Source of the DNA: Candidatus Limnocylindria bacterium
Lineage (GTDB): Bacteria; Chloroflexota; Limnocylindria; P2-11E
Reading direction: 5' to 3'
Length of the DNA: 64,000 nucleotides
NCBI GenBank assembly: GCA_035651155.1
Contig: DASRGG010000005.1
Coordinates: forward strand, 74,503-138,502
In this document: positions 7,893 to 24,672 of the stretch, in pieces
How positions within the stretch are numbered: the first letter of the stretch is position 1
Layout: each line of letters starts with the position of its first letter
Program-made: the position numbers and the translations under genes
The notes under the pieces: generated by a model
Database searches by the model: none
The model's input: the letters and a program-made list of their open reading frames with translations, nothing else
Told to the model about the DNA's origin: nothing

Positions 7893-8109
7893 GGCGTCGG
7901 CCGAGGCCGGACGCTGGCTCGCGCAGGCCGAGCGCGACCTCGCCGCGGCACGCGATCTCGAGCGGGCGGGCCACTTCAACGTCGCGTGCTTTCAGGCACA
8001 GCAGGCAGCGGAGAAGGCGGCGACTCACCCAGACGGTGCGCGACGCCGGTCATCAACGGGGACGATCTCGCTGACCTGGCGGACTCGACTGAGGGCAGGG
8101 AGGCTCTAA
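7882..8109 (+). pseudogene. HEPN-domain fragment (N-terminal about 47 aa HEPN-like, C-terminus degenerate or truncated)
   Basis: MKPEASAEAGRWLAQAERDLAAARDLERAGHFNVACFQAQQAAEKA matches the HEPN N-terminal helix pair. Downstream sequence (ATHPDGARRRSS...) does not continue a HEPN fold in any frame, and the C-terminal Rx4-6H motif region is absent. The ORF ends 3 nt inside the convergent sigma-factor gene. Confidence 0.45.
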
Positions 8110-8720: not shown

Positions 8721-8729
8721 AGGGGGACT

Positions 8730-9221: not shown

Positions 9222-10997
9222 CTAGGGGGCGGTGAACCCCTCGTAGATCATCGCGTTGTCGCCGCCGGAAGCCAGCTCGACGACGATGCCGTTGATGGAC
9301 CCGGTGCCGCCGTCGGCCACCACCGAGTATTGCGTGTCGTCGGAGAGGGCGCTCACGTCGCGCGGGTCGACGCGGATCGCCGAGCCCGGCGTGATGGGGA
9401 GGGTCTGCGTGGTCACGAGAGCGCCGTCGCTGAAGCGGTACCACGAGAGCGTGACGCTCACCGCGGACGAGGACTGGATGATGAGCGGCGTCGTCCATCC
9501 GGCCGCGCCGCCGAGCCTGCGCGTCACGTTCGGCAGGAAGCTCTTCCCGGCGACGGTCGGCGTCGCGGAGTAGGCCATCGCGGTCGCCTCGCTGTTCACG
9601 TTCACCTGCCCGGCGAGGCTCGCCCCCGGCGCGGAGACGACGAACGAGTAGTCGCCGTCCGGGAGGCAGCCGCCGATCGCGCTCGACGCGCAGAAGGGCT
9701 GCGTGGTGTCGCCGTTCGCGTACCGCACGTCGAAGACCTTGGAGGCGCCCGGCCGGATCGCGCCGAGCGCGTACGTGCGCGCCGTCCCGCCGCCGTGCGG
9801 CGTGAACGCGATCGTCGGCGACGCGGCGCTCGTGCCCAGGTTCTGGACCACGACGGTCGCCGACCGCGATATGCCGTCCGTGTTCTTCGGCGCGTAGGCG
9901 CCGAAGAGCGTAGCGCCGCCGACCACCACGCCGCCGGTGCTCCCGGCCTTCGGATGGACCTGCCACGGCTGGTCGTCCTGCGTGTTCACGACGACGGCGA
10001 GGGGCTGCGACGCGGTGACGGTGACCGCGTACTGCGTGCCGTCCACGAGGCCCGGCTCGACGTTCGGATCGATGAACTGCGAGCGGCCGGCGTCGATGGT
10101 GCGGATCGACGTGACGGTCGGCGCCGTGCCGTCGAAGGAGACGAACCGCGCGGTCGCGGTGGTCGCGACGGCGCCGAGGTTCTGGATGACGAACGGCGTG
10201 TCGAAGCCGAAGAAGCGCCGCGTGATGTTCGGCAGGAACACGCTCGTCGCGCCCGCCGCCGCGCCGACGTACGACATGGCCTCGGCCTCGTCGCCGCTGC
10301 CCTGGTGCTCGTTCACGACGGACACGACGGTCGAGCCGTAGCTGCGCACGACGACCGCGAACTGCGAGTCGCCGGGCAGGTAGGTGTCGTTGTTGGGCAC
10401 GTCCGCGTAGGAGGTGCCGGGCGCGAGGCTCGGCACGACGCGGCAGGTCACGAGCGACCCGTCGGAGAACCGGTAGAAGGAGATCTCCAGACGCGTCGCG
10501 GCGGTGCCGGTGTTCTGCACGATGAACGGCGTGTACCAGCCGCCCGGTCCGCCGAGCGTCTTCGTGACGTTCGGGAGGTAGACGGTGCGCGTCGGCGTGC
10601 CGCCGGTGCATGGCTGCGCGGGCACCTGGCCCGGCTTCAGCATCGGGGCGTCCTGCCTGGTCGCGCCGTGCACGACGAACTGCGGCGAGTCGTATTCCTG
10701 GTAGACGCCGCTCTGGTCGAGGAATTCGAGCTGCTGCGCCGCGGTGACGAGGTCGTTCGGCGGGAAGTCGATGCGATACGTGCCGTCGGCGGCGGTGCGC
10801 GTGAAGCACGTGAGCTTCACCGGGCCGAGGATCACGCAGATGTTGGCGAGCGGAGCACCGGTGGAGGCGTCGAACGCGATCCCGTAGATGTAGCTGTCGA
10901 ACGCGGCCGCCTGCCCGCCCGACAGCCCGAGTGACGCGATGACGAACGCGAGGACGACGGACAGCCTGACGGCACGGACGACACGTGTGGGGTCCAT
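9222..10997 (-). CDS. Secreted protein: N-terminal CarboxypepD_reg-like domain followed by four copies of an uncharacterised ~110-aa repeat (LPNVT[KR]..GG..GW.TP.I[IV]QN)
   Basis: Signal peptide VVLAFVIASLGLSGGQAAAF. The CarbPepD-like segment is IYGIAFDASTGAPLANICVILG...ADGTYRIDFP. Four internal repeats begin YLPNVTKTLGGPGGWYTPFIVQNTG, FLPNITRRFFGFDTPFVIQNLG, (degenerate) ATVVVQNLG, FLPNVTRRLGGAAGWTTPLIIQS. Confidence 0.55.
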   Translation of the reverse strand: MDPTRVVRAVRLSVVLAFVIASLGLSGGQAAAFDSYIYGIAFDASTGAPLANICVILGPVKLTCFTRTAADGTYRIDFPPNDLVTAAQQLEFLDQSGVYQEYDSPQFVVHGATRQDAPMLKPGQVPAQPCTGGTPTRTVYLPNVTKTLGGPGGWYTPFIVQNTGTAATRLEISFYRFSDGSLVTCRVVPSLAPGTSYADVPNNDTYLPGDSQFAVVVRSYGSTVVSVVNEHQGSGDEAEAMSYVGAAAGATSVFLPNITRRFFGFDTPFVIQNLGAVATTATARFVSFDGTAPTVTSIRTIDAGRSQFIDPNVEPGLVDGTQYAVTVTASQPLAVVVNTQDDQPWQVHPKAGSTGGVVVGGATLFGAYAPKNTDGISRSATVVVQNLGTSAASPTIAFTPHGGGTARTYALGAIRPGASKVFDVRYANGDTTQPFCASSAIGGCLPDGDYSFVVSAPGASLAGQVNVNSEATAMAYSATPTVAGKSFLPNVTRRLGGAAGWTTPLIIQSSSAVSVTLSWYRFSDGALVTTQTLPITPGSAIRVDPRDVSALSDDTQYSVVADGGTGSINGIVVELASGGDNAMIYEGFTAP

Positions 10998-11093
10998 GTC
11001 GTGACTAACGACGCAGGTGCCATTTCAGTTTCGTCGGCGGCGACCGCGTGGTGTACGAGCCTCGGGCCTTCGCGAGCTGGGCGCCTCGCTCGT

Positions 11094-11123
11094 TGTACGT
11101 CTACATGTACGTTCAGATGTACG
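11094..11123. promoter_or_regulatory. Three TGTACG hexamers at 12-nt spacing (with a fourth at about 11052) in a divergent intergenic region
   Basis: tTGTACGtctacaTGTACGttcagaTGTACGATG. The last hexamer abuts the ATG at 11124. The region lies between the minus-strand repeat-protein/sigma operon start (10997) and the plus-strand RelE/ParE ORF. Candidate operator. Confidence 0.3.
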
Positions 11124-11507
11124 ATGGCGGCGCTCCTCGCGCGCGACCGGCGCGACGCCGGTGAGACGTCGCGCCCGCTCGCGGAGCTGATCGCCGAGCG
11201 TCGCGGTGCCCGCCCGAAGCGTCGCACGCCGCGACGCGCGCATGCCGCGTATCGCGTCCACGTCCAGCGATCGGCGGAGCGCGATCTCGAGCTCCTCGCG
11301 CCCGCGCTCTTCGATCGGATCGCGAGACGGCTCGTCGCGCTCGGCGCGGTTCCGCGGCCGTCAGGAGCGGAGAAGCTCGTCGCGATCGAGGCCTATCGCC
11401 TTCGTGCGGGCGACGACCGCGTCGTGTACGAGGTCAACGACCGCACGCGCGTCGTGATCGTCACGCGGATCCGGCATCGCCGGGAGGTCTACCGGAGGCT
11501 GCGCTGA
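11124..11507 (+). CDS. RelE/ParE-family type II toxin domain protein with about 40-aa N-terminal extension
   Basis: The C-terminal 85 aa (YRVHVQRSAERDLELL...LVAIEAYRLRAGDDRVVYEVNDRTRVVIVTRIRHRREVY) matches the RelE/ParE consensus (RLRvGdyRviYev.d..v.V.ri.HRreiY). No intact upstream antitoxin ORF found. Confidence 0.55.
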   Translation: MAALLARDRRDAGETSRPLAELIAERRGARPKRRTPRRAHAAYRVHVQRSAERDLELLAPALFDRIARRLVALGAVPRPSGAEKLVAIEAYRLRAGDDRVVYEVNDRTRVVIVTRIRHRREVYRRLR

Positions 11508-11753
11508 ACGATCGCAAGGACGAAGACGTCGGAGCGCTCGAGGCGGGGGGCACGCGCGCCTTGACGATCAGTCGGCGCTGATCCGGCGCGCGATCGACCG
11601 CGAATACCTCGGACGGGCTCGGTGATCGAAGGCGGATCGTTTGCGCGCCATCCGCAGCGCCGCGGGAGCGTAGCGGGGGCGGACCGAGACCGGTGCGGAC
11701 TACGTCGAGCGCATGCGTTCCGGGCGGCTCGCGCGCCTTTGCGCGCGCGCGCG

Positions 11754-12143
11754 ATGAGGTACGCGATCGATACGTCGGTCCTGATCGACGTCCTGCGCGA
11801 GTACCGGCCTGCCGTCGAGCTCCTCGAGCGGCTGGCGGAGCAAGAGGCTCAGCTGGTGAGCTCGTACGTCGTTCGCACCGAGGTGCTCAGCGGGATGCGT
11901 CGCGGTGAAGAGCGCGGCACGCGCGCGCTCCTGGAGCTCGTGGAATGGCTGCCTGTGGGGGAGCCGGAATCCGAAGCCGCGGGAGCGTTGGGGCGGAGGT
12001 GCGCCGGGGCGAACCAAGGGCTCGACACCCCCGACCTGCTGCTCGCGGAGGTCGCCGAACGTCAGGGTGCCGAGCTGCTCACGACGAACGTCAAGCGCTT
12101 CCGCGAGATCTTTCCAGGCATCCGCGCGCCGTACCCGTACTAG
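11754..12143 (+). CDS. vapC: PIN-domain ribonuclease (VapC-like toxin), apparently without intact cognate antitoxin
   Basis: MRYAIDTSVLIDVLRE... carries the N-terminal PIN acidic motif, and ...LLTTNVKRF is the C-terminal PIN signature. The upstream 240 nt contains only frameshifted antitoxin-like fragments (..ALIRRAIDREYLG). Confidence 0.65.
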   Translation: MRYAIDTSVLIDVLREYRPAVELLERLAEQEAQLVSSYVVRTEVLSGMRRGEERGTRALLELVEWLPVGEPESEAAGALGRRCAGANQGLDTPDLLLAEVAERQGAELLTTNVKRFREIFPGIRAPYPY

Positions 12144-12178: not shown

Positions 12179-13303
12179 CTACCGCAGGGGGAGGCGCTCG
12201 ATCGCGCGCAGCGCGGAGAGGCCGTCGCCGATGCCGCCGATGAGATACGCGTCCGACCCGGTGACCACCAGATCGCCGAGAGCCCGCGCGATGGACGGGC
12301 TGGCGAACTCCGACCACGCGTTCGTCGCGGGATCCCAGATCTCCGCGCCCGCGACCGGGACCCAGTCCTGACGATCCGGGAGCTGGCGCGATCCGCCGGT
12401 GATGAGCACGCGGCCGTCCGGGAGCGCCGCGGCCTGCTCGATGAGACGCGGCTCCACCAGCGCGCCCGCGTAGGTGAACACGCCGCGCGCGGCGTCGTAG
12501 CGCTCGGCGGTGTTCGCCGCGGCCTGCTGCCCGCCGATGATGAGCACGTCGCCGTCGCGCAGCGCGACCATCGCGTGCTGCACGCGCGGGACGGACATGT
12601 CGGGACCGGGCGTCCAGAGGTCCTTCGCGGGGTCGTAGATCACCGAGCTCTTCATCGGCGCGCCGATCTTCGAGAGGCCGCCGGCGACGAGCACGCGCCC
12701 GTCGCGCAGCGGCGCGATCGAGAAGCGCACGCGCGGCTCGGGCAGCGGCGCGGCCTCGGTCCAGCGATCGGCCTTCGGGTCGTACAGCTCGCTCGACGCG
12801 AGCGGCACGGTGCCGAAGTTCCCGCCGGTGACGAGCACCCGCCCGTCGCGGAGCGCGGCCGCGCCGTGATCGCTGCGCGCCTGCAGGAGCGGCGCCGCGC
12901 GGCGCCAGCGGTGCTCGAACGGGAGGTACACGTCGACGCGGTCCGACGAGTGGAACGCCTTCGCGTACCACTCCACGCCGCCGGCGATGACGAGGCGATC
13001 GCCGCCGACCTGGGTCATGGTGTGGTGGAGGCGCCCGGGGAGCGGCTGCTCGAGCACCCGGAGCGTGTCCGTGAGCGGATCGATGAGCTCGGTCGCGGGA
13101 TTCACGACGCCGGGATCGTTCTCGTCGAGCCCGCCGAACACGAAGATCTCACCGGTGGGAAGGAGCGTCGCGCTCGCGTACGCGCGCGGGCGCGCGAGCT
13201 GCGCCATGGTGGTCCACCCGGCGTCCTTGAAGCCCTGCGGCGCGCTCGCCCCCACCAGTACGGCGACGGCGAGCGGCACGACGAGCGTGCCGACCCACCT
13301 CAT
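12179..13303 (-). CDS. Kelch-repeat (galactose-oxidase-like) beta-propeller protein, secreted
   Basis: 374 aa. Signal peptide MRWVGTLVVPLAVAVLVGASA. Six repeats of the Kelch signature (...GGxx...G....ELYDP....W; e.g. VLVTGGNFGTVPLASSELYDPKADRWTEAAPLP). The start ATG overlaps the stop of the upstream amidase (caATGAgg). Confidence 0.75.
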   Translation of the reverse strand: MRWVGTLVVPLAVAVLVGASAPQGFKDAGWTTMAQLARPRAYASATLLPTGEIFVFGGLDENDPGVVNPATELIDPLTDTLRVLEQPLPGRLHHTMTQVGGDRLVIAGGVEWYAKAFHSSDRVDVYLPFEHRWRRAAPLLQARSDHGAAALRDGRVLVTGGNFGTVPLASSELYDPKADRWTEAAPLPEPRVRFSIAPLRDGRVLVAGGLSKIGAPMKSSVIYDPAKDLWTPGPDMSVPRVQHAMVALRDGDVLIIGGQQAAANTAERYDAARGVFTYAGALVEPRLIEQAAALPDGRVLITGGSRQLPDRQDWVPVAGAEIWDPATNAWSEFASPSIARALGDLVVTGSDAYLIGGIGDGLSALRAIERLPLR

Positions 13304-16300
13304 TGCACTTGGAGGGTAGCCGAGCCTCCGGGCACGCCTTGACCCGAGAACCAGGTGACGCCTTCCTGCACGAGGTCGAACGTGAGCGTGTACGTGCCCG
13401 CGGTCGCGGGCGCCTTCACCGTCGCCACGAGGGCGATGCTCTGACCCGGCTGCACGTCGGTCGGCAGCGCGGTGCGCGCGCCGTCCCACACGTACAAGAG
13501 GCCGGCCGCCGTCGAGAGGTGGTAGGCGAGGTTCACCTGCGACGCGCGCAGCCACGGCATCGCGCCGGTGTTCGTGAGCGTGACGCCCACGTTCGCCGTT
13601 CCCGCGACCGGGGCGCTGATCGGGTTCCCCGCGACCACGTACGTCGCGCCGTAGCTCGGCACGACCGCGGTGAACGTCCTCTGCGGCGTCTGCATGCCGT
13701 TGCCGGAGAACCACGCGACGCCCTCCTGCACGAGGTCGTAGCGGATCGTGTACGTCCCCGCGGTCGCCGGCACGCCCACCTTCACGGCGACGGTGCGGAG
13801 CTCGTTCACCTTCATCCCCGCGAGGCTCGTGCGCAGGCCGTCCCACACGACGGTGTTCCCGGACGCGTCGTAGAGGTGGTAGCTGAGGTTGACGCTCGCG
13901 CCCCAGTCGAAGTTCGAGAGGTTCTGCACCTTCACGTTGAAGGTCGCGGGCATCGCGGTCGGCAGCGTCGCCGGCGTAGCGGAGACGTCCAGCGATCCGC
14001 CGTAGAAGAGGTTCGCGGTCGAGCCGACCTGCACCGGCTGGTCGAAGGTGCGCACGTCCTTGCCGCTGAACCACGCCACGCCCTCTTCGACCATGTCCCA
14101 GCGCAGCGTGTACGTGCCGGTGCCGGTCGGGAACACCAGCGACGCCTGGAGGCTCGCGGAGGCGCCCGGCGCGACGTCGGCGGGCAGGCTCGTGCGCAGG
14201 CCGTCCCAGACGACCGTGCGGCCGGCGCTGTCGCTCCAGTGGTACGAGAGGTGGATCGGGTTCGCGCCGCCCGCGGACCACGCGAAGCTGCTCGTGTTCG
14301 TCACGGTGATCGGCACGCTCGCCGCGCTGCCCGAGACCGCGAGGGTCTGCACCGCGGGCTGGTAGCTCGCGCCGTACGTCTTCACCAGCGGGCCCGCGAC
14401 CGGCGTCGAGAGGGTGCCGGTGGCGACGCCCTTGGACGAGAACCACGCGACGCCTTCCTGCACGAGGTCGAAGCGCAGCTGGTACTGGCCGCCCTGCGGC
14501 GGCGCGGTGACCTGCGCCTGCAGCGTGACGGACTGGCCGGGGGCGAGGTCGGCGCCGAGCTTGGTGCGCGCGCCGTCCCACACCGCGGCCACGCCCGCGG
14601 CGGTGTACCAGTGGTAGCCGAGGGTGACCGGGTACGAGCTCGTCGTCGGGAACACGCCGCGCCCGGTGTTCGTGACCGTGACGGGCACGGTCGCGGTCTG
14701 GCCCGCGCTGAAGGTGGGCTGACCCTGGACCTGGTACGCGGCCTTGAAGTCGAGCGAGACGCCCGTGGGCGTGTCGTCGGGCGCGACGCCCTTGTCCGAG
14801 AACGCGAACTCGTTCTCCTTGTAAAGGTCGAGGTAGTTCGTGTACTGCGTCGGATAGGTCGGCGCGGTCATCGGGAACGTGAGCGTCACCGACTGGCCGG
14901 GCTGCACGTCGGCGGGGAGCGCCACGCGCGTCGCGCCCGGGAAGGTGTTGCCGGTCGCGTTGGAGACCCACTTGTAGCCGAGGCGCACGGGGTTCGCGCC
15001 GCCCGCGGGCCACACGCGGCCGCCGTCGTTCTGCACGGTGACGGTGATCTGCTTCGTCTCGCCCGCGACCCACGCGATCGGCACGTTGTCCTTGACCCAG
15101 TCCGCGCTCCAGTCGGCCGAGTTGAACCACTGGTCGCGCACCGGCGTGCCCTTCAGCGTGTTCCACCACTGCGTGCCGGTCTGGAGATCCCAGCGCACGA
15201 TGTACGACCCGATCGCGGGCACGCTGAACGCGACGTTCACCGTCGCGGCCTGGCCCGGCGCGAGCGGCGCGGGGATCGGCGCGAGGGGGCCCTGCGCCTG
15301 GACGACCGCGCCCTTCGAGAGGATGCGGTACGAGACGTTCGTGCCCGCGGGGATCGCGGTCTGCCCCCTGTTCGTCACGGTGACCGGCACGCTCACGACC
15401 GCGCCGGGGAACCCGGCCTTCGGGAGCTGCGGATCGATGTAGGGCATGTCGAAGTAGCCGGCGTTCACCGCGTTCTGCGCGAGGCGGCGCAGCCCGTCGA
15501 TCATGTTGTAGATCCCGTTGCCGGGGCAGGCGGTCTGCCCGCCGTGCTGCGAGAGGATGTAGTTGCAGTCGCGGTGGCCCTGCACGTTGGGCGGGTTGCT
15601 CGTGATGTTCACCCAGCTCCCGTCGGGCGCCTGCTCCTGGTGCGTGAACGTGTCGTTGCCGTAGGGCTGGATCCCGAGCTGGGTCGCCTTGATCGCGACG
15701 ATGTTCGCGATCGCGCCCTGCAGCGCGCTCGTCGGCTGCGCGATGGAGTAGTCGCCCAGGGCGGCGATGCCGATGGAGCCGTTGTTCCAGCCGTACGCGT
15801 GACCGGCGATGACGTTGTCGCCACCCTGCCGGCCCGTCCAGATGTTGCCGAACTTGTCGACGAGGTAGTTGTAGCCGATGTCGCCCCAGCCGCGCGTGAC
15901 CGCGTGGTAGTAGTAGATCGCGCGGATCGTCGCCGCGACGTTGTTGCCGCCGTCGTCGGTGACGGTGTGGTGGATGACGAACTTCTGCGCCTTCTGATAG
16001 CGCGGCGGCCACTGCATGAGGTTCTCGTCCGCCGCCCAGTCCTGCCGCGTGAGGATGCGCGACGAGCCCACCGGCGCCGCGTCGGCGTAGCTCCGTGTGA
16101 AGTCGCTGAACGCGCCGGCCACGTCGTTCAGCAGGCGCGCGAGCGGGCCGGCGTTCAGGTCGCTCACGTCCATGAACGTGAGGTTCACGCGCGCGATCGC
16201 GTCGGGGTCGCCGCTCGTGAGCCACACGCGGTACTGCGCGTAGCGCGCGGCTGTTTGCGCGACCGGCACGGGCGCGGCGAAGTGCTCGTTGCTGAGCTCG

Positions 16301-16761
16301 TCGGTCATGTCCTCTTCTTCGTTCATCTGGCGCCAGCCGCTCCACAGGGCGCCGTCGCTGGAGGTGCGCGCCTCGACGAAGATCGTGTCCTGGGCGCCGG
16401 GCGCCGCGATCCAGTGGATGCCGAGCCGGTCGAAGACCTGGCCCGCGTCGATGACCTCGGATGAATAGAGGAGCGTCGCGCCGCCGGTGCTGCCCGCGTC
16501 GGCCGCGCTGATCCGCGCGCCGCTCGGAAGAGAGAGCGCGCCCGCCGCGCCCCGGGCCGGGTGCGACCGGGAGACCTCGCTCGCGACGATCCGGCCGCTG
16601 GCACGCGGGGAGGCGACCGCCGGCGTGCCGAAGTTGGGGAGGAGGGCGAGCACGAGCGCGCCGATGAAGAGCGCTATCCGAAGGCGCGCGTGGCGTCGGC
16701 CCAACCGGACCTCCTTCTTCCTCTGCCACGCTTCCCCGACGCCGAAGCTGGATTCTGACAT
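13300..16761 (-). CDS. Secreted N-acetylmuramoyl-L-alanine amidase (Amidase_2/PGRP domain) with about 7 tandem four-tryptophan (FW/NBR1-like) Ig-like repeats
   Basis: The catalytic domain is FVIHHTVTDDGGNNVAATIRAIYYYHAVTRGWGDIGYNYLVDKFGNIWTGRQGG...AGHAYGWNNGSIGIAALGDY. C-terminal repeats of about 110 aa follow the pattern TVTNTG...W..GGANP[VI].LSYHW.D..G..VVWDG.RT.LP.DVAPG.S.TL...P...GTYTLR.DLVQEGVAWFS. Signal peptide present. Confidence 0.8.
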   Translation of the reverse strand: MSESSFGVGEAWQRKKEVRLGRRHARLRIALFIGALVLALLPNFGTPAVASPRASGRIVASEVSRSHPARGAAGALSLPSGARISAADAGSTGGATLLYSSEVIDAGQVFDRLGIHWIAAPGAQDTIFVEARTSSDGALWSGWRQMNEEEDMTDELSNEHFAAPVPVAQTAARYAQYRVWLTSGDPDAIARVNLTFMDVSDLNAGPLARLLNDVAGAFSDFTRSYADAAPVGSSRILTRQDWAADENLMQWPPRYQKAQKFVIHHTVTDDGGNNVAATIRAIYYYHAVTRGWGDIGYNYLVDKFGNIWTGRQGGDNVIAGHAYGWNNGSIGIAALGDYSIAQPTSALQGAIANIVAIKATQLGIQPYGNDTFTHQEQAPDGSWVNITSNPPNVQGHRDCNYILSQHGGQTACPGNGIYNMIDGLRRLAQNAVNAGYFDMPYIDPQLPKAGFPGAVVSVPVTVTNRGQTAIPAGTNVSYRILSKGAVVQAQGPLAPIPAPLAPGQAATVNVAFSVPAIGSYIVRWDLQTGTQWWNTLKGTPVRDQWFNSADWSADWVKDNVPIAWVAGETKQITVTVQNDGGRVWPAGGANPVRLGYKWVSNATGNTFPGATRVALPADVQPGQSVTLTFPMTAPTYPTQYTNYLDLYKENEFAFSDKGVAPDDTPTGVSLDFKAAYQVQGQPTFSAGQTATVPVTVTNTGRGVFPTTSSYPVTLGYHWYTAAGVAAVWDGARTKLGADLAPGQSVTLQAQVTAPPQGGQYQLRFDLVQEGVAWFSSKGVATGTLSTPVAGPLVKTYGASYQPAVQTLAVSGSAASVPITVTNTSSFAWSAGGANPIHLSYHWSDSAGRTVVWDGLRTSLPADVAPGASASLQASLVFPTGTGTYTLRWDMVEEGVAWFSGKDVRTFDQPVQVGSTANLFYGGSLDVSATPATLPTAMPATFNVKVQNLSNFDWGASVNLSYHLYDASGNTVVWDGLRTSLAGMKVNELRTVAVKVGVPATAGTYTIRYDLVQEGVAWFSGNGMQTPQRTFTAVVPSYGATYVVAGNPISAPVAGTANVGVTLTNTGAMPWLRASQVNLAYHLSTAAGLLYVWDGARTALPTDVQPGQSIALVATVKAPATAGTYTLTFDLVQEGVTWFSGQGVPGGSATLQVQ

Positions 16762-16932
16762 CAGAGAGCAGGGTTGTCTCTCTCGGAAACGAATGGGGCG
16801 CCGCGGTCGTCACGCTGGGCGGGTGCAATTCGCCATCAGATGAGCAGGCAGAAAGACGAGCGCATCTCAGCGGCGTGCAAGCGTCGGACGTTCGATCTGA
16901 CGATGAGCTTCGCACATGCTGTGTGCTAAGTT

Positions 16933-17178
16933 GTGTGCGTGCGTCTGCACATAAGCCTTGATCCGAAGCTCGTGAAGGCCGTGGACAGACGCGTCGGGAA
17001 ACGCAAGCGGAGCGCCTTCATCGCCGACACCGTCCGGCGCGCGCTCGAGGACGAGCGGCGCTGGGACGACATCCTCGCGTCCATCGGATCGATCCCGGAT
17101 TACGGCAGCGACTGGGGAATGACCCCGGCGGAGTGGGTCCGCGCGCAGCGGCGGCTTGACCCGCGACGCGTGGGTTAG
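16933..17178 (+). CDS. vapB: Ribbon-helix-helix (CopG/VapB-type) antitoxin
   Basis: GTG start. VRLHISLDPKLVKAVDRRVGKRKRSAFIADTVRRALEDE is a classic RHH fold. The stop TAG immediately precedes the vapC ATG. An imperfect inverted repeat (TGTGCGtgcgtcTGCACA) overlaps the start and is a possible operator. Confidence 0.7.
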   Translation: MCVRLHISLDPKLVKAVDRRVGKRKRSAFIADTVRRALEDERRWDDILASIGSIPDYGSDWGMTPAEWVRAQRRLDPRRVG

Positions 17179-17574
17179 ATGGCAGCGATCTTCCTCGACA
17201 CGACCGTACTCGTCGACGCCCTCCGTGGCGGACCGGCGGGTGCTCGGGTGCGCGTCCTGAGGCGAGACGGCTTCACGCCGTTCGTCTGCGCCATCAACGT
17301 CGACGAGCTTTGGCGTGGCGCGCGTGGCCCGACACAGGAGAAGGAGGTCGCTCGGCTTCTGCGCGGGCTTCGTGTCGTGCCGCTCCGAGCCGAAGAGGGT
17401 GAGCGTGCCGGCCGGTGGCGCCGGGACTTCGGCGCCCGCGGGATCACGCTCGGCCAGGCGGATTGCCTCATCGCCGCCGCCGCGGTCACGGTCGGCGCAC
17501 GCCTGGCGACGGCCAACGTCTCTGATTTCCCGATGCCGGAGCTCGTCGTCGAGGACTGGTCGGACTCGCGCTGA
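17179..17574 (+). CDS. vapC: PIN-domain toxin VapC
   Basis: MAAIFLDTTVLVDALRG...NVDELWRGA...DCLIAAAAVTVGARLATANVSDF shows the PIN acidic residues and the C-terminal motif. Confidence 0.75.
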   Translation: MAAIFLDTTVLVDALRGGPAGARVRVLRRDGFTPFVCAINVDELWRGARGPTQEKEVARLLRGLRVVPLRAEEGERAGRWRRDFGARGITLGQADCLIAAAAVTVGARLATANVSDFPMPELVVEDWSDSR

Positions 17575-17927
17575 GGCAAGCTACGCACCTGCCAACACCT
17601 TCACGTACTCGGCAGCCCACTCCAAAAATCTCGGCCACGCGGCCGCGCCCTTCGGCAGCGGCGGCGGATAGAGCCCCGCGCCGGCGAAGACCGCCCTTTG
17701 CTCCTCGAGCATCCGGACGGCAGCGACGGCGTTCGCGAGGTCGCTCCGCTTCGCGCTCCCCGGAGGAGCTCGAAGATCCGGTGCACGGCCGCGAAAGTCC
17801 GCGACCAGCGCGTGTAGCGCTGCGGCAGCGGCTTGAGCAGCGCCCCGATCTCTTCGCTCATCGCGAGCGAGTAGCGGTCGGCGTTGACGGCACGGAAGCT
17901 CTTCACGACGCCCGCAGCGGGATCGGA

Positions 17928-20900
17928 TCAAAAGGGCGCGAGCCGCAGCATGGTCGATCTGAGGCCGAGGCACGCCTGGATCGACTCGGCCTTCACGTCC
18001 GCGGTCGCGGCGGTGCCGATGAAGCGGATCGAGATGGTGTGGCCGACCCCGGCCGGCGACTGGTTCGTGACGTCGACGCCGACGAGCGTGCCGATGTTCG
18101 GGCCGCCGGCGCAGATGGCGGCGTTCACGATCTGGGCGCCGCTATAGGTCGCGCTCCACGACGCGCGCGGGTTCGGCGGGCTCGCGACCAGACGATCGCC
18201 CGGGTCCGGGACCGCCGCGAGGTACGGCTGCGTCGCGTCCGGCGTGCACACCCAGGTGCCGCCGCTCCGGACGACGCGGTTGCCCCAGCAGCCGAACTCG
18301 AGCGTGTAGCCGCCGCTCGAGCTCGCGAAGTACGTCTTCACGATGCGGCCCTGGTAGGTGACCAGCTTGCCGGCGGTCGCGAGGACCGCGGCGTCGGTGC
18401 GCGGACCCTCGGCCGCGACGCCGCCGTAGCACTGGTCCGACTGGTCGTCGCTCACGTCGTAGTCGCGCGCGGTGCCGCGGTACGACGCGTACGCGTACGA
18501 GCGCGCCGCGTAGGCCTGCGCCTTCAATGCCTCCGGGTGCCACGTGCTCGGCATCTCGTAGGAGATGACGCCGCGCACGTAGTCGTCGTAGCTCACGGCG
18601 TTCACCACGCGCAGCGTGTTGCCGAGGTTGGTGAGCCGGAAGTTGCCGCGGTAGAAGCCGGGCGTGCCGTCCAGGTGGTCGAGCTGCACGAAGCGCAGCG
18701 GCTGGCTCGGATCGAGCGGCACGACCGCGACGCTTGCGAACGATCCGAGGTTGGTGGGCGTCGCGGTGTTGTTGCTCCACACCTGCACCGCGCCGCCGGT
18801 CGCGACGAACTGCCACTTCGCGTTCGGCGCCGCGCGCCCGATCTCGGCGTTCGCGTTCGCCTCGTTGAGCACGCGGAATCCGCCGGCCGACACGACGTCG
18901 CCGAAGTAGCCGTCGAAGTACGCGTTCGTGCCGCAGCGGTAGCGCGACTGCGACGACGGCTGCGAGAGCAGCACGCGGTTGAACGGACGCGCGGCGTCGC
19001 CGAACTGGAACTGCGTGCCCGGGAAGTACTTCTGGATGATCTGCTCGCCGGTCATCGGCGCACCCGTGGCGCCGGTGGCGTAGCCCTGCGCGCCGTACTG
19101 GCTCATGCCCACGCCGTGGCCGAAGCCGCTGCCGTAGAAGACGACGCCGGACACGACGGTGAAGGGCTCGCGCTTGGTCTGCACGTTCACCTGGCTGAAC
19201 CAGGCGACGCCCTCCTGCACGAGATCCCACGCGATGATGTAGTCGCCGACACCCGCGGGCACGGTGACGCGGATCGGCACGGTCGCGGAGGTGAACGCCG
19301 GAACGTCGTTCGGGAGCGTGCCGCGGGCGCCGTCCCACACGTACGTGGTGCCGGTGTTCGCGCCGAAGATGTGGTAGCCGAGGCGCACCGGATTCGCGCC
19401 GCCCGCCGGCCACGCGCGCGGCCCGTAGTTCATCACCGTCACCGTGAGGTCGATGACCGCGCCGATCGTGACCTGCCCCGGCGTCGTCGTCGCGCCGTAG
19501 CCGCCGGAGAGGCCGCTCGTGACGCTGAACGCGGCGCGCGCCGGCGGCGAGCCGCCGTCGGCGAACCAGCCGATGCCCTCGCGGACGAGGTCGATGGCGA
19601 GCGTGTACGTGCCCGACGAGGACGGCGCGGTGAACGCGAGCTGGAGCGTGCGCGAGCCGCCGGGCGCGAGGTCCGCGCCGATCGGCGTGCGCGCGCCGTC
19701 CCACACCACCGTCGCGCCGTCCGCGTCGAAGATGTGATACGAGAGGTTCACCGGATTGGGGCCGCTCCCGCTCCAGGCCTGGTTGCCGGTGTTCGTCACG
19801 GTCACGGCGACGGTCTTCGACTCCGCCCAGTACGCGTCGATCGTCGCGGCGAGCGAGTACGCGGCCGCGTAGCGGATCGCCTCGACCGCCGCGGACGCGC
19901 GGTACGGCGTGCCGCCCATCGCTCCGAACCAGCCGACGCCCTCGCGCACCAGGTCGACGGTCAGCGTGAACGTGCCCGCGACGAGCGGCGCGGTGACGCG
20001 CGCGTTCACCGTGGCGCTCGCGCCAGGCGCGACGTCGGCGGGCAGCGGGGTGCGCACGCCGTCCCACACGACGGTGTTCCCGGTCGCGTCGTGCCAGTGG
20101 TACGACACGTCGATGGGCGTCGCCCCCGTCGCGTTCCACGTCGCGGCGCCGGTGTTCTTCACGGTCACCGGCACCGTGTACGCGCCGCCGGCGACGAACG
20201 CGGGGAGCGACGCCGCGCTCACCTGCGCGACGTACGGCGCGAGCGCGTTCACCGCCATCGCCGGACCGGGCGGGAACCACGCCACGCCTTCCTTCACGAG
20301 CGCGAGCTTCAGGAGGTACGTGCCGGGGGCGGGCGGAAGGACCACGTTCGCGGTGACGGTGCGCTGCGCCGCGGGCGCGACGTCGCCGCCGAGCGGCGTG
20401 CGCACGCCGTCCCACACGACCGCGTTCGCGCCGGTCTGGTCGTACCAGTGGTACGTGAGGTTCACCGGGCTCGCGCCCGTGGCGTTCCAGGTCTGGTTGC
20501 CGGTGTTCGTGAGCGCGACCGCCACCTGGAGCGTGCCGCCCGCCGGTGCGGACGCCGGCGGCGCCGCGACCGTGTAGGCCGCGGTGTACGTCGCGGGCTG
20601 CGCGGTCACGGAGAGCGGCGCGCTCGGCGCGAACCAGGCGATGCCTTCCTTCACGAGCGCGAAACGGAGGAGGTACCGGCCGGGGCTCGCGGGCACGACG
20701 ACCGTCGCGGTCACGGTGCGCTGGCCCTGCGGCGCGACGTCCGCGCCGAGCGGCGTGCGCACGCCGTCCCACACGACCGCGGTCGATCCGCTCGCGTCGT
20801 ACCAGTGGTAGGTGAGGTTCACCGGGTTCGCGCCGGTCGAGGTCCACGCCTCGTCGCCGGTGTTCGTGAGCTGCACCGCCACGGCGATCGTGGCGCCCGC

Positions 20901-21038
20901 GGCGACCGCGGCCGGCGGCGTGGGTACCGCGTACGTCGCGGCGAGCACGCCGAGCGGCGCCGCGAACGAGGCGCTCCCGAGGATGCCGGTCACGATCGCG
21001 GCCGCGACGAGGGGCGCGAAACGACGGCTCATCGGCAC
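17928..21038 (-). CDS. Secreted SpoIID/LytB-domain protein (lytic transglycosylase/amidase enhancer family) with 5 N-terminal FW/NBR1-like repeats
   Basis: Signal peptide. Five repeats (QLTNTGDEAWTSTGANPVNLTYHWYDASG..VVWDGVRTPL...GRYLLRFALVKEGIAWF and similar). The C-terminal SpoIID/LytB signatures are GSGFGHGVGMSQYGAQGYA, EMPSTWHPEALKAQAYAARSYA, YFASSSGGYT. Confidence 0.8.
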   Translation of the reverse strand: MPMSRRFAPLVAAAIVTGILGSASFAAPLGVLAATYAVPTPPAAVAAGATIAVAVQLTNTGDEAWTSTGANPVNLTYHWYDASGSTAVVWDGVRTPLGADVAPQGQRTVTATVVVPASPGRYLLRFALVKEGIAWFAPSAPLSVTAQPATYTAAYTVAAPPASAPAGGTLQVAVALTNTGNQTWNATGASPVNLTYHWYDQTGANAVVWDGVRTPLGGDVAPAAQRTVTANVVLPPAPGTYLLKLALVKEGVAWFPPGPAMAVNALAPYVAQVSAASLPAFVAGGAYTVPVTVKNTGAATWNATGATPIDVSYHWHDATGNTVVWDGVRTPLPADVAPGASATVNARVTAPLVAGTFTLTVDLVREGVGWFGAMGGTPYRASAAVEAIRYAAAYSLAATIDAYWAESKTVAVTVTNTGNQAWSGSGPNPVNLSYHIFDADGATVVWDGARTPIGADLAPGGSRTLQLAFTAPSSSGTYTLAIDLVREGIGWFADGGSPPARAAFSVTSGLSGGYGATTTPGQVTIGAVIDLTVTVMNYGPRAWPAGGANPVRLGYHIFGANTGTTYVWDGARGTLPNDVPAFTSATVPIRVTVPAGVGDYIIAWDLVQEGVAWFSQVNVQTKREPFTVVSGVVFYGSGFGHGVGMSQYGAQGYATGATGAPMTGEQIIQKYFPGTQFQFGDAARPFNRVLLSQPSSQSRYRCGTNAYFDGYFGDVVSAGGFRVLNEANANAEIGRAAPNAKWQFVATGGAVQVWSNNTATPTNLGSFASVAVVPLDPSQPLRFVQLDHLDGTPGFYRGNFRLTNLGNTLRVVNAVSYDDYVRGVISYEMPSTWHPEALKAQAYAARSYAYASYRGTARDYDVSDDQSDQCYGGVAAEGPRTDAAVLATAGKLVTYQGRIVKTYFASSSGGYTLEFGCWGNRVVRSGGTWVCTPDATQPYLAAVPDPGDRLVASPPNPRASWSATYSGAQIVNAAICAGGPNIGTLVGVDVTNQSPAGVGHTISIRFIGTAATADVKAESIQACLGLRSTMLRLAPF

Positions 21039-21084
21039 GACGCCGCCAAGGTCCTCACGGTCGTGACGTTACACAACCGGCGCG

Positions 21085-23799
21085 TCATGGGACGAAGGTC
21101 ACCGGGCGCGTCGCGCCCGCCCCGAACCAGCGGACACCTTCCGACACCAGATCGATCGTCGCCGACGCGGCGCCCGCGGGCACGGGGCCGAGCGCGACGG
21201 AGAGCGCGATCGTCTCGCCGGGCGCGACGTCGCGCGGCAGCGCGGTCCGCGGGCCGTCCCACACGAGGACGTTGCCGGCGGCGTCGTACCAGTGCACCGA
21301 CGCGCGCACCGGGGCGGGCCCGCCGGCGGTCCAGAGCGCGCTCGTGACGTTCGTGACCGTGGTCTGCGCGACCGGCGCCGCGCGCGACACCGACAGCGGA
21401 CCGGTCGGCAGCCGCGCGCGGTAGTCGGCGACGACGAGCAGCGGCACGTCGCCGGTCGCGATGCCGAGGCCGCTGAACCACGCGACGCCCTCGCGGACCA
21501 GGTCCACGCGCGCGCGATACGCGCCCGGCGCGAGCGGCGCGTCGACCGCGACCTGGTAGCTGCCCGACGCGCCCGGCGCGACGTCCGCGGCGAGCGCGGT
21601 GCGGGCGCCGTCCCAGAGGACGACGTTCCCGCTCGCGTCGACGACGTGCGCGGCGAGGCGCACGGGGTTCGCGCCGGCCGCGGGCCACGCGAGGATGCCG
21701 TCGTTGCGGACGCCGACCGTCACACTGGCGCGCTCGCCGGGAAGGAGCGTCGCGATCGCGCCCGGCGTGTACGAGGCCGCGAAGCCCGAGGTCACCGAGT
21801 AGGTGATGTCGCGCGTGGGAACGCCCTCGCCGCTGAACCACGACACGCCTTCCTGGACGAGGTCGAGCCGCAGCGTGTACGTGCCGAGATCGGCGGGCGC
21901 GCTGACCGGCAGCTGCACGGTAACGGTCTGCCCGGGTTGGACGTCGGCCGTGAATGGGGCCCGCGCCCCGTCCCAGAGCACGGTCGTGCCCCCGCGCAGC
22001 CAGTGGTAGGAGAGGCGGACCGGGTTCGCGCCGGCCGCGGCCCAGGATCGGGTCCCGGTGTTCACGAGCGTCACCGCGAGCGCCGTCGCGGGCGCGCCGC
22101 TGACGAGCGTCGCGCTGGTGGCGGTCGTCGCGTACGACGCGCCGAGGCCCGACCCGACCGCGACGGCGACGTCCGCGGGTGCCACGCCGTACGCGGAGAA
22201 CCAGCCGATGCCCTCGCGCACGAGGTCGAAGCGCAGCGTGTACGCGCCGCGCGTCGGCGGCGCGAGCACGGTCGCCGTGGTCGTGACGGTGGCGCCGGGC
22301 TGCACGTCGCTCGGCAGCGTCGCGCGGACGCCGTCCCAGACGACGACGTTGCCGTTCGCGTCGAGCCAGTGGTACGAGAGGTGGACGGGGTTCGTGCCGC
22401 CGGCGGCCCAGATGCCGGGCGACGTGTTCGTCAGCGTGACCTTCGCGCTGAAGAGGTCGCCGGAGGTCACCGAGCGCGCCACCGCGCTCGTGTCGTACCT
22501 CGCGCCGAAGGGCGGCAGCGTCGCGGTCACCGCGCGCAGCGCGTTGAGGCGCCCCGCCCCGTACGCGACGTCGGGGCCCGGCGGACCGAGGTCGTCGGCG
22601 GTGGACTCGAGGCGCTGCAGGACCTGCGTCGCGGTGAGGCTCGGGTCCATTCCCAGGAGGAGCGCGGCGAGGCCGGTCGCGAAGGGCGTCGCCTGCGAGG
22701 TGCCGGAGAACGCGGCGTAGCTCATCGAGCCGCCGCGGTCCGATTGGTACGTCGGGTAGTGCGGCGTCGTGCTCACGATGCGGACGCCCGGCGCCGACAC
22801 GCCGACCTGCGGGCCCTGCGTGGAGAACGGCGCGATCGTGTCGTCGGTGGAGGTCGCGCCGACCGCGAGCACGCCGGGATAGCCGGCCGGGTACTCGACG
22901 AGGTTCCGCGTGTTGAGGCAGCGCGTCGACGCGACGCCGCAGTTGCCCGCGGCGGCGATGATGAGCACGTTGCGCTGGATCGCGTACTGCACGGCCGACT
23001 GGAGCGTGCCGCTGTCGCTCGACGAGCCGAGGCTGATGTTGACCGCGCGCGCGCCGTGATCGACCGCGTACACGATCGCCTGCGCGATGTCCGAGATCGA
23101 TCCGCTGCCGGTGCAGTCGAGCGCCTTGATCGGAAGGATGCGCGCGTTCGGCGCGATGCCGACGATGCCGATCCCGTTGTTCGCGTCCGCGGCGATGACC
23201 CCGGCGACGTGCGTGCCGTGTGAGTTGTCGTCCGTGCCGGCCGTGTCGGCGTTGCAGCCCGTCGCCTGCGCCGACAGGATCGTCGTCCCCGGAAGGACGA
23301 CGCCCGCGAGGTCGGGGTGGCCGGCGTCGACGCCGGTATCGATGACGGCGACGGTCGTCGGCGTGGTCGCGGTCACGAGGTCGCGCGCGCGATCGAGGAG
23401 GATCTTCCTCGCGCCCCACTGGCCGAGGCCGACGTACGGGTCGGTCGTCCAGAGCGGATCGTTCGGCGTGAAGTCGAGGTGCACGCGCGCGTCGTTCTCG
23501 ACCCGCAGGACGCCGGGCCGCGCGGCCAGCGCCGCGAGGAGGACGGCGCCGTCGGCGCCGCGCTCGAGCGGCGCCGCGATGCGGGTCACGCCGATGCCGC
23601 GGAGCTCGACCTCCACGACGCCGCCCACCGCGGCCGCGGCGGCGGCATGGTCGGCGTCGGTCGTCCCGGCCGCGAACTGGACGAGGACGCGAACGGTCTC
23701 CGCCGGCACGGACGCCGCCCGAGCGGGCGACGGGCCGGCCGCCAGCATCGCGGCGACGACCAGGGCGATGCCGACCCGGCCGAGGGCGCTTCCGTGCAC
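21085..23799 (-). CDS. Secreted subtilisin-like S8 serine protease with 4 C-terminal FW/NBR1-like repeats
   Basis: Signal peptide and pro-region. Catalytic triad motifs VAVIDTGVD (Asp), HGTHVAGV (His) and GTSQATP (Ser). These are followed by 4 repeats (VTLTNTSPGIWAAGGTNPVHLSYHWLDANGNVVVWDGVRATLPSDVQPG... and similar). Confidence 0.8.
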   Translation of the reverse strand: MHGSALGRVGIALVVAAMLAAGPSPARAASVPAETVRVLVQFAAGTTDADHAAAAAAVGGVVEVELRGIGVTRIAAPLERGADGAVLLAALAARPGVLRVENDARVHLDFTPNDPLWTTDPYVGLGQWGARKILLDRARDLVTATTPTTVAVIDTGVDAGHPDLAGVVLPGTTILSAQATGCNADTAGTDDNSHGTHVAGVIAADANNGIGIVGIAPNARILPIKALDCTGSGSISDIAQAIVYAVDHGARAVNISLGSSSDSGTLQSAVQYAIQRNVLIIAAAGNCGVASTRCLNTRNLVEYPAGYPGVLAVGATSTDDTIAPFSTQGPQVGVSAPGVRIVSTTPHYPTYQSDRGGSMSYAAFSGTSQATPFATGLAALLLGMDPSLTATQVLQRLESTADDLGPPGPDVAYGAGRLNALRAVTATLPPFGARYDTSAVARSVTSGDLFSAKVTLTNTSPGIWAAGGTNPVHLSYHWLDANGNVVVWDGVRATLPSDVQPGATVTTTATVLAPPTRGAYTLRFDLVREGIGWFSAYGVAPADVAVAVGSGLGASYATTATSATLVSGAPATALAVTLVNTGTRSWAAAGANPVRLSYHWLRGGTTVLWDGARAPFTADVQPGQTVTVQLPVSAPADLGTYTLRLDLVQEGVSWFSGEGVPTRDITYSVTSGFAASYTPGAIATLLPGERASVTVGVRNDGILAWPAAGANPVRLAAHVVDASGNVVLWDGARTALAADVAPGASGSYQVAVDAPLAPGAYRARVDLVREGVAWFSGLGIATGDVPLLVVADYRARLPTGPLSVSRAAPVAQTTVTNVTSALWTAGGPAPVRASVHWYDAAGNVLVWDGPRTALPRDVAPGETIALSVALGPVPAGAASATIDLVSEGVRWFGAGATRPVTFVP

Positions 23800-23829: not shown

Positions 23830-24672
23830 TTATGGGGTCGTCCGCACGACGAGCACGTTCTCGAGGCGGCGGAGGTCCACGGCCGGAGCGATGATCGCGC
23901 GTTGATACGCCGCCGCCTCCGCGTTCTGCAGCTGGACCACTTTCCCGATCACCAGTCCCTTCGGATACAGGGAGCGCAGCTCCTCGCCGAGCCCCAGGCC
24001 GGCCGTCACGACGACGTCGCCGGGCCGCACCTTCTCGGTCTGGAGGATCCATTCCATGATCAGCGCGTCCCCGTACTGGCCGCGGACGATGCCCGTCGCG
24101 CGCGATCCCTCCACCAGCGCGGAGAGCGTCGACGCCGGGTCCGTGACGAGGAGCACCTTGCTGTAGTTCGCGCCGGCCTCGGTGATGCGGCCCACCAGGC
24201 CCTGGTCCGACACGACCACGTGACCGGCCTTCACGCCCTCGTTCGTGCCGACGCCGAGCACGACGGTCGCGAGGATGTTCGAGGGGTCGCGCGCGATCAC
24301 GGTCGCGCGCACCGTGTCGAACGGCAGCGTCTTCGCGACCTCGCCCAGCTTCGCGGCCTGTTGCGCCGCGAACGCGGCCTCGCGCAGCTTCACGTTCTCG
24401 AGCGTGAGGCGGTCGACCTCCTCGCGGAGATTCGCGTTGTCCGCACGCAGGCGCTGGATCTCGGCGATCGCCTGCGTGAATTGGTTCACGGTGATGCCCG
24501 CGTCGGCGAGGACGCGCTGCACCGGCACGAGCAGCTCGGTGCCGGTCGTCGCGAGCGAGCGCAGCGGATCCCAGTTCCGCGCGAGGAGCAGGAGCGTGGA
24601 CACGACCAGCAGGGCCGCGAACGATCGGACGAAGCCGTTCTGGGCGCGGCGGGTCCGACCCAGGCTTGCCAC
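23830..24672 (-). CDS. mreC: Rod shape-determining protein MreC
   Basis: N-terminal TM segment, a coiled-coil (QAIAEIQRLRADNANLREEVDRLTLENVKLRE) and C-terminal beta domains (VVSDQGLVGRITEAGANYSKVLLVTD). Sits immediately downstream of mreB. Confidence 0.8.
   Translation of the reverse strand: MASLGRTRRAQNGFVRSFAALLVVSTLLLLARNWDPLRSLATTGTELLVPVQRVLADAGITVNQFTQAIAEIQRLRADNANLREEVDRLTLENVKLREAAFAAQQAAKLGEVAKTLPFDTVRATVIARDPSNILATVVLGVGTNEGVKAGHVVVSDQGLVGRITEAGANYSKVLLVTDPASTLSALVEGSRATGIVRGQYGDALIMEWILQTEKVRPGDVVVTAGLGLGEELRSLYPKGLVIGKVVQLQNAEAAAYQRAIIAPAVDLRRLENVLVVRTTP

Follow-up and report, generated by a model that had tools for sequence, protein, structure and literature searches.

Tandem FW-like repeat arrays on three predicted secreted hydrolases of a conserved mreBC-linked gene block in Candidatus Limnocylindria

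A 64,000-nucleotide stretch of the genome of a Candidatus Limnocylindria bacterium (GenBank assembly GCA_035651155.1, contig DASRGG010000005.1, positions 74,503 to 138,502; here called the window) encodes three predicted secreted enzymes, a PGRP-type amidase, a SpoIID/LytB-domain protein and an S8 protease, each of which carries a tandem array of one and the same repeat, related to the FW (N_BRCA1_IG) domain of the eukaryotic protein NBR1. The genes belong to a block, attached to mreB and mreC, that recurs in the same order in Candidatus Limnocylindria metagenome-assembled genomes (MAGs), and this synteny is the new result of our analysis. We propose that the block is a conserved mreBC-linked wall-remodelling set in which the FW-like arrays act as a shared module for envelope retention or targeting through putative binding, a proposal whose chances of being right or wrong we regard as evenly balanced. 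Within it, retention on the envelope is the most likely function of the arrays, and a common ligand, either the wall or an S-layer, is putative.

Limnocylindria are abundant in soil and freshwater, uncultured and known through MAGs, and our search of the literature found nothing on their envelope. The observation made in a preliminary description of this DNA, that three hydrolases of different classes share a repeat next to mreBC, is real once several details are corrected, and it concerns a module that is already annotated and widespread and a design principle that is familiar.

Results

Conservation of the block

Relatives of the block were collected with the SpoIID protein as query, in a scan that covered each species by a single genome. 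It gave 28 loci with best-segment identities of 39-77%, 27 of them titled Chloroflexota or Limnocylindria MAGs and one titled Candidatus Acidiferrales. When the window proteins and a profile of the repeat were mapped onto these loci, a shared gene order was seen in those of 49-77% identity where the contigs were long enough. It begins with a GDP-mannose-dehydratase-like gene, a zinc-ribbon gene, radC, a gene for an NlpC/P60-type peptidase, mreB and mreC; then follow the genes for the S8 protease with its repeats, the SpoIID protein, the amidase, a Kelch protein, a 591-residue protein (p591), a CarboxypepD_reg protein, an ECF sigma factor and an anti-sigma factor. Both the sigma and the anti-sigma gene are kept downstream in loci L009, L010, L013 and L024, and the sigma gene alone in L015 and L018. 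The length of the gap between the SpoIID and amidase genes differs among loci.

The repeats are retained in the orthologous hydrolases of the related loci, with four copies in the S8 protease (two in some lineages), four or five in the SpoIID protein and six in the amidase, and each repeat is nearest to its positional orthologue of other genomes. In 110 orthologous amidases the catalytic domain is on average 75% identical to that of the window protein, the repeats 51-68% and the N-terminal domain 56%. The adjacency to mreC-mreB and to an NlpC/P60 peptidase that was first described is confirmed, all of these genes lying immediately upstream on the same strand, and the conserved gene order in Limnocylindria MAGs strengthens the earlier suggestion of a co-localised wall-remodelling toolkit.

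The three enzymes

The three catalytic classes named in the preliminary description stand: alignment with solved homologues showed the expected motifs to be intact in all three enzymes, and the Pfam, NCBIfam and PDB matches agree on the predicted activities. The amidase consists of a signal-peptide-like segment, an N-terminal domain (residues ~53-205), an Amidase_2 domain (residues ~256-415; PF01510, 49.2 bits against a cutoff of 26) and six repeats. Among solved chains it most resembles PGRP3 and the catalytic PGRP-LB, and its FVIHHT and TACPGN motifs align with VVIHHS and TACPGN of solved homologues; the HH and ACPG residues we take to be the zinc ligands. The protein is 100% identical to a public Candidatus Limnocylindria MAG entry named N-acetylmuramoyl-L-alanine amidase.

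In the SpoIID protein a signal-peptide-like segment is followed by five repeats and a SpoIID-type domain (residues ~631-1036; 17928-19145, minus strand), which scores 83.2 bits with PF08486 (cutoff 23) and 140.3 with TIGR02669 (cutoff 83.3). The cutoff of the sporulation equivalog TIGR02870 is missed (93.7 against 234.75), so the protein is not an orthologue of the sporulation SpoIID. Its alignment with 4RWR includes the YEMP...EALKAQAYAARSYA motif, and at the catalytic motif, with the Glu of EMP...EALKAQA, VISYEMPSTWHPEALKAQAYAARSYA stands opposite VVASEMNASFEIEALKAQALAARTF of 4RWR. The segment GFGHGVGMSQYGA (GHGVGMSQYGA), which is C-terminal in 4RWR (residues 279-317), here lies N-terminal to EMP/EALKAQA, an arrangement that suggests a circularly permuted or otherwise rearranged SpoIID/LytB domain.

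The S8 protease, a thermitase-like member of the subtilisin family, begins with a signal-peptide-like segment and a propeptide-like region, continues with the catalytic domain (residues ~148-416; PF00082, 194.9 bits) and ends in four repeats. The Ak.1 protease (E 3.6e-54) and thermitase are closest to it, the motifs VIDTGVD, HGTHVAG and SGTSQATP of the Asp-His-Ser triad are kept, and the mycosin equivalog is missed (238.7 against 278.75). None of LysM, SH3b, SLH, CWB1/CWB2, SPOR, PG_binding_1 or GW was found in the three enzymes by Pfam at E <= 0.01. The N-termini of the extracytoplasmic candidates, read by eye from the translations, are basic and then hydrophobic and look like signal peptides.

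A broad-specificity thermitase-like protease beside an amidase and a glycan-cleaving enzyme could also form an exo-digestive set for scavenging necromass or for predation, with repeats that bind insoluble polymer substrates, and relatives of the repeat do occur on GH18 chitinase-like and other degradative enzymes. We nevertheless consider this very unlikely, since the position directly after mreB-mreC and NlpC/P60 is kept across the class, each locus has one conserved copy with a stable number of repeats, and the block contains an ECF sigma/anti-sigma pair of a kind typical of envelope regulation.

The shared repeat

A hidden Markov model (HMM) of the repeat, built from 13 obvious copies and run on all six frames of the window, found 15 repeats of ~112 residues, confined to the amidase (six), SpoIID (five) and S8 (four) open reading frames (ORFs), and matched no other open frame. 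The counts of five and four agree with those first given, whereas the amidase loses one of the seven repeats ascribed to it, the leftover N-terminal domain being predicted to be a jelly roll and not an Ig-like sandwich. That the module is common to the three proteins is borne out both by the consensus motif first given, which agrees with our alignment consensus, and by the family scores given below. The repeats occupy residues 445-547, 558-669, 678-789, 802-913, 927-1034 and 1044-1153 of the amidase, the first two degenerate and the other four canonical; residues 39-151, 158-270, 275-386, 396-507 and 517-629 of the SpoIID protein, as an N-terminal array; and residues 438-549, 559-670, 679-790 and 798-903 of the S8 protease, as a C-terminal array.

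Four tryptophans had been called invariant and a hallmark of the FW domain. This does not stand, as they are present in 13, 8, 13 and 14 of the 15 copies, and their overlap with those of NBR1 is partial on a weak alignment. Across 286 repeats of orthologous proteins Trp is found at W27 in 81%, at W41 in 60%, at W51 in 80% and at W96 in 94%. Near-invariant in the same set are N21 (98%) and P77 (99%), next to which come several Gly and W96, and the conservation of polar positions extends from N21 to H40 (83%), R55 (86%), D88 (89%) and E92 (85%). The Trp content of the arrays is 3.2-3.4%.

Two parts of the arrays stand out. Amidase repeat 2 (14755-15090, minus strand) lacks the VWDG and WF tryptophans, yet is the best single match to the Pfam FW model; it is also the most conserved repeat across the 110 orthologues (68% identity), which hints at a specialised role beside the catalytic domain. 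SpoIID repeats 1 and 2 (20229-20924, minus strand) are 66% identical to each other, other pairs being ~40-50% identical regardless of protein, and five SpoIID repeats are found in the closest relatives only, with four elsewhere; this looks like a recent tandem duplication, which would explain the difference in copy number.

Relation to the FW domain

With the N_BRCA1_IG family PF16158, whose gathering score is 28, the whole proteins score 91.8 (amidase), 62.5 (SpoIID) and 37.2 bits (S8), all above the threshold. Scanned singly, repeats mostly fall under it (19.3 bits, for example), and PF16158 is the first match for 13 of the 15, with a best E of 9.1e-08. CARDB, LacZ_4, NPCBM_assoc and DUF4232 were considered as the family of the repeat and rejected, as they matched fewer repeats and more weakly; the Pfam comparison that had been suggested, in particular with CARDB, thus came out for PF16158. 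This family is already listed for these proteins in the public index, and the NCBI name of one relative is 'NBR1-Ig-like domain-containing protein'.

Comparison with solved structures was less specific. Of solved NBR1, a single alignment was obtained, that of the profile to 4OLE, which is weak (E = 0.15). In it NBR1 'VKW' lies over W27, 'FMW' over W41 and 'SHW' over position 87, where the repeats have Trp in 24% and otherwise F or L; W51 of VWDG belongs to a segment that NBR1 does not have, and no NBR1 Trp stands opposite W96 of WF. Single repeats gave nothing useful with phmmer against the PDB, and Foldseek against the PDB gave generic Ig-like matches only (E > 1e-3), with many equally good structural neighbours. 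We conclude that the repeat, with its predicted beta-sandwich fold, belongs to the FW/N_BRCA1_IG (E-set) family as a divergent branch in bacteria, for which 'FW-like' is a fair label.

Kinship with a protein-binding domain brings in the possibility that the repeats bind proteins, joining the enzymes to one another, to a repeat-only S-layer-like protein, or to MreC, the Kelch protein or p591. NBR1 FW binds MAP1B and TAX1BP1, and that of CtNbr1 binds an N-terminal peptide of Ams1 (PMC3357945, PMC9233695, PMC9582228), which occupies a pocket flanked by strands beta1 and beta6 (PMC9233695). Repeat-only secreted proteins exist, and the Kelch protein and p591 are conserved in the block, the former apparently translationally coupled to the amidase. 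Against this explanation, to which we give a low probability, our analysis identified no partner, the conserved polar residues differ from those of NBR1 in the weak 4OLE alignment, and the module is found on hundreds of unrelated architectures outside the block.

Breadth of the repeat family

A 112-residue profile run against an index of 5.8 billion proteins returned only fragments of less than 200 residues and no architectures, and a representative library was therefore used, whose 1.84 billion representatives were scanned in full with HMMER; architectures were taken from the best 150. The family comprises 16,671 cluster representatives at E <= 1e-3 and 702 at E <= 1e-30, with up to 15 repeats per protein; the cluster names are nearly without taxonomy (one Chloroflexi MAG and one Clostridium omnivorum). 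Wall-related and protease partners among the best 150 are S8, Amidase_2, SpoIID, S8 with M23, M74, M6 and S53 kumamolisin, and the occurrence of repeat relatives on other peptidoglycan hydrolases (Amidase_2, M23, M74) supports targeting. The same 150 include fusions to F5/8 type C, cohesin, He_PIG, CAP, PA14 and GH18, as well as to sulfatase, glucose/sorbosone dehydrogenase, PD40, RCC1 and multicopper oxidase domains. Many secreted proteins consist of repeats only, for example 12 repeats in 1535 residues; the genomic context of this protein, like that of the identical public amidase, held nothing informative.

Genes of the block and their surroundings

The G+C content of the window is ~70%, and the series of minus-strand genes was defined from frames with high third-position G+C and a Pfam scan (Table 1).

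Table 1. Genes and other features of the block, with positions in the window
Feature	Positions	Strand	Evidence or remark
zf-HC2 anti-sigma factor with Reg_prop beta-propeller	4866-7295	-	Pfam
ECF sigma factor	8106-8729	-	Pfam
591-residue protein p591, predicted secreted	9222-10997	-	Positional orthologues in at least 13 loci
Kelch beta-propeller protein, predicted secreted, 374 residues	12179-13303	-	Pfam Kelch_4 and Kelch_6, E ~1e-32
Amidase (Amidase_2/PGRP-type), 1153 residues	13300-16761	-	Pfam, E 8.7e-13
VapBC-like toxin-antitoxin pair: small ORF and PIN/VapC	16930-17574	+	PIN PF01850, 57 bits
Terminator-like hairpin, then T run	17632-17645	-	~290 nt after SpoIID stop
SpoIID/LytB-domain protein, 1036 residues	17928-21038	-	Pfam, E 2.1e-23
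Peptidase_S8 protein, 904 residues	21085-23799	-	Pfam, E 2.4e-57
mreC	23830-24672	-	Pfam PF04085, 136.8 bits; adjacency kept in related loci
mreB (approximate start)	24676 to ~25725	-	Translation read as actin-like MreB; positional orthologues
NlpC/P60-type peptidase, predicted secreted	25824-27194	-	Pfam PF00877, 26.6 bits against cutoff 23
radC	27241-28134	-	Upstream of NlpC/P60 gene

Two points of the original layout had to be changed. The interval 12179-23799, first described as the trio, begins with a distinct gene for the Kelch protein, a product that lacks FW repeats. This gene directly follows the amidase gene in nearly all related loci, and in the window its ATG overlaps the amidase stop as ATGA at 13300-13303, which suggests that the amidase and the secreted Kelch protein are translationally coupled. 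The three hydrolase genes do share the minus strand as stated, but they do not all adjoin one another: 1.17 kb separate the amidase gene from the SpoIID gene, and in this gap lies a plus-strand VapBC-like pair, with a third-position G+C (GC3) of 0.82-0.84 against 0.96, that has homologues in none of the related loci and lies outside the conserved block. Between the Kelch gene and p591 there is a second set of this type, a ParE-like gene with a second PIN protein (11001-12143, plus strand). Both sets occupy the larger intergenic gaps of the block, two in number. Since they have lower GC3 and no homologues in the 28 related loci, they look like lineage-specific insertions.

The spacing from mreC to the SpoIID gene is tight, mreC ending 30 nt upstream of the S8 start and the S8 and SpoIID genes being 46 nt apart. 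One terminator-like site was found between 11000 and 28500, against 3.6 +/- 2.2 in shuffled sequence, hence no enrichment over chance; in this genome the mreBC-S8-SpoIID transcript may end at the hairpin after the SpoIID gene. A promoter scan did not find sigma-70-like sites. In mre operons mreD, pbp2 and rodA commonly come after mreB and mreC; MreD, PBP2 and RodA were not recognised in the scanned ORFs of the window, where 32.4-37.1 kb and several other stretches were unscanned and a short mreD could be missed.

At the mreB position the related loci have orthologues with E of about 1e-195. The NlpC/P60 protein encoded upstream of mreB, also conserved in position, has no FW repeat and a weak RipC-like match in NCBIfam. 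Downstream of the Kelch gene, the conserved block member p591 has internal beta-sandwich-like repeats of ~110 residues and no convincing family, Pfam giving a weak CARDB match only and NCBIfam none. The CarboxypepD_reg, ECF sigma and anti-sigma genes (4866-9209, minus strand) form the downstream end of the block, keep their position in several relatives, and are a candidate envelope-stress regulator of it.

On its flanks the block has a gene for a Wzy_C (O-antigen-ligase-like) protein with TPR (264-2351, minus strand) and one for a GDP-mannose-4,6-dehydratase-like enzyme (28920-29996, minus strand), the latter keeping its position in relatives; both products could be related to surface polysaccharide. 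Farther away, a signal-peptidase S26-like gene lies beside a camelysin/TasA-family (Peptidase_M73) gene (49246-50654, minus strand), which recalls the SipW-TasA fibre operon of Bacillus, and a DnaB helicase gene (54070-58592, plus strand) has an intein splicing domain after DnaB_C and a second long overlapping frame (55677-58592).

Discussion

We infer a retention module from the identities of the enzymes, which are apparently secreted, from the terminal arrays that they have in common, from the lack of a recognised wall-binding domain and from the class-wide linkage to mreBC. The arrays would be a shared multivalent module that holds otherwise soluble enzymes on peptidoglycan or on a wall-associated polymer. 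The NlpC/P60 enzyme would open cross-links and the amidase would strip stem peptides from the wall, after which the SpoIID enzyme would cut the denuded glycan strands, an order established for SpoIID-type enzymes, which digest glycan chains after an amidase has removed the peptides and are present in non-sporulating bacteria (PMC6635528). The protease may process the hydrolases, or other proteins of the wall, to their mature forms or turn them over, and the linkage to mreBC would couple hydrolysis to lateral, MreB-guided growth of the wall; a SpoIID of Waddlia has been reported to co-purify with the MreB anchor RodZ (PMC6635528). The block would then be a compact and conserved candidate for the hydrolytic half of the elongation machinery.

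Several findings weigh against this proposal. Wall hydrolases are not the only carriers of the module, whose 16,671 representatives include many extracellular enzymes, and it is also fused to non-wall proteins such as a sulfatase, a glucose/sorbosone dehydrogenase (GSDH), a Cu-oxidase, RCC1 and PD40. In some relatives known carbohydrate-binding domains (F5/8 type C, PA14) come after the array. The isoelectric points of the arrays are 5.4-6.6, that is, neutral to acidic, whereas some wall-binding modules are basic, and simple electrostatic binding to anionic polymers is therefore unlikely. Co-transcription of the hydrolase genes with mreBC is putative, suggested by spacing and synteny, and in this genome the terminator-like site and the toxin-antitoxin insertion part the amidase from the genes upstream. 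Lastly, the repeats were not encountered on phage lysins: the S8 array had no tblastn match in 50,697 phage genomes, among which phages of this lineage are not expected, and IMG/VR gave two weak matches to the repeat, neither a lysin. We regard this search for phage endolysins as uninformative rather than negative. The two IMG/VR contigs (L029 and L030; 5785-6156, plus strand) are low in G+C and encode an identical protein of about 100-120 residues without a lysin domain, whose C-terminus YEIRFGLVREGVTWYD (LVREGVTW motif) is the sole part that matches the end of the repeat.

Much of the same evidence would suit a passive role, in which the repeats, like PKD, FN3 or Big, are an Ig-like stalk or spacer that provides length, rigidity, solubility or protease resistance and has no specific ligand; any retention would then have another source. 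The family is very large and sits on many unrelated extracellular domains, and its generic E-set sandwich has many structural neighbours that are equally good. Relatives with the architectures Amidase_2-five FW-F5/8 type C and Amidase_2-four FW-PA14, in which a binding domain lies beyond the array, fit a spacer. If the hydrophobic segment at the N-terminus of the SpoIID protein stays uncleaved as an anchor, the array, which separates it from the catalytic domain, could act as a stalk. On the other hand, in the amidase and the S8 protease the array forms the free C-terminus and no anchor follows it, so that a pure spacer would have nothing to space from; every repeat of the three proteins shares in the conservation of polar residues, the orthology of the repeats is strictly positional, and they are at least as conserved as the N-terminal domain of the amidase. 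The strongest points against a pure spacer are the free C-terminal arrays in two of the three proteins and the polar residues conserved throughout, and the strongest for it are the broad fusion partners and the carbohydrate-binding domains that follow the array in relatives. We judge a plain spacer to be unlikely, if with appreciable weight; were it true, an ordinary multidomain autolysin cluster would remain.

The retention reading can be extended beyond the block. The FW-like array may represent a class of envelope-binding modules that has gone unrecognised in bacteria, a Chloroflexota counterpart of SLH, CWB2 and choline-binding repeats that targets a whole secretome, in Limnocylindria with the mreBC-linked protease, SpoIID and amidase among its members, to the wall or one of its polymers; we hold this broader idea to be possible, if on balance doubtful. 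The ligand of the arrays, once shown, would annotate thousands of extracellular proteins. If the arrays do bind the envelope, it would be the first ligand for bacterial FW domains, and since the repeat has its eukaryotic relatives in the domain with which a core autophagy receptor binds its cargo, it would hint at the role that the domain had before its recruitment to NBR1.

The closest functional parallel, by analogy, would be the LytB/LytC pair of Bacillus subtilis, encoded in lytABC, where adjacent genes for LytB (CwbA, a SpoIID/LytB-domain protein) and the amidase LytC (CwlB) share tandem wall-binding repeats. As in Limnocylindria, neighbouring SpoIID/LytB-domain and amidase genes have one repeat module in common. 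That module is CWB2, in three copies and N-terminal in both proteins, whereas the Limnocylindria module is an FW-like sandwich, and LytC is an Amidase_3 enzyme, unlike the PGRP-type Amidase_2 found here. LytB, placed in the SpoIID Pfam family, was reported to lack peptidoglycan hydrolysis (PMC10653849), whereas the Limnocylindria SpoIID protein keeps the catalytic EMP motif. Neither a protease partner nor linkage to mreBC is a known feature of lytABC, and both are found in the Limnocylindria block.

In the choline-binding proteins of pneumococcus, the CWB2 (Cwp) proteins of Clostridioides difficile and SLH proteins, one repeat module directs diverse enzymes to one wall polymer. The likeness lies in a multicopy, non-catalytic module on secreted amidases, glycosidases and proteases. 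None of these known wall-binding modules was detected in the Limnocylindria trio, and the FW-like repeat, neutral to acidic, is of another fold class, predicted to be a beta sandwich; the block may thus work like those systems and is not a member of any of them. With the SpoIID-SpoIIP(-SpoIIM) machinery and the chlamydial SpoIID/AmiA pair the block shares the succession of an amidase and a SpoIID-type enzyme, and in chlamydiae SpoIID is associated with MreB/RodZ (PMC6635528). The SpoIID-SpoIIP and SpoIID-AmiA enzymes are membrane-anchored and have no repeat arrays, whereas those of Limnocylindria are predicted to be secreted and carry arrays, and the order of the SpoIID segments in the Limnocylindria protein appears permuted in comparison.

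The eukaryotic FW domains of NBR1 and ILRUN (PF16158; 4OLE, 6VHI, 7VQO) are the best Pfam family for the repeats, and NTG...W...(F/Y)xW and G.Y....L...G..F motifs are visible in the weak 4OLE alignment. In that alignment the Trp set is partly shared and the Limnocylindria repeats have an extra VWDGxR segment; moreover, eukaryotic FW domains are single-copy, cytosolic and protein-binding, whereas the repeats are tandem and sit on predicted secreted enzymes. Marchbank et al. 2012 described FW domains in Chloroflexi, Actinobacteria and metagenomes, in diverse architectures and usually near the C-terminus (PMC3357945), and the bacterial cases that they treated in detail are single-copy and fused to cytoplasmic XRE DNA-binding domains. 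In our literature search we found no account of wall hydrolases that carry tandem FW arrays, nor of an mre-linked block that encodes secreted enzymes of this kind, and, in agreement with what the preliminary description had stated, no ligand or function for bacterial FW domains. Set beside these systems, the Limnocylindria block follows a familiar design logic and differs in its module, in having a protease for its third member and in being linked to mreBC in a conserved way.

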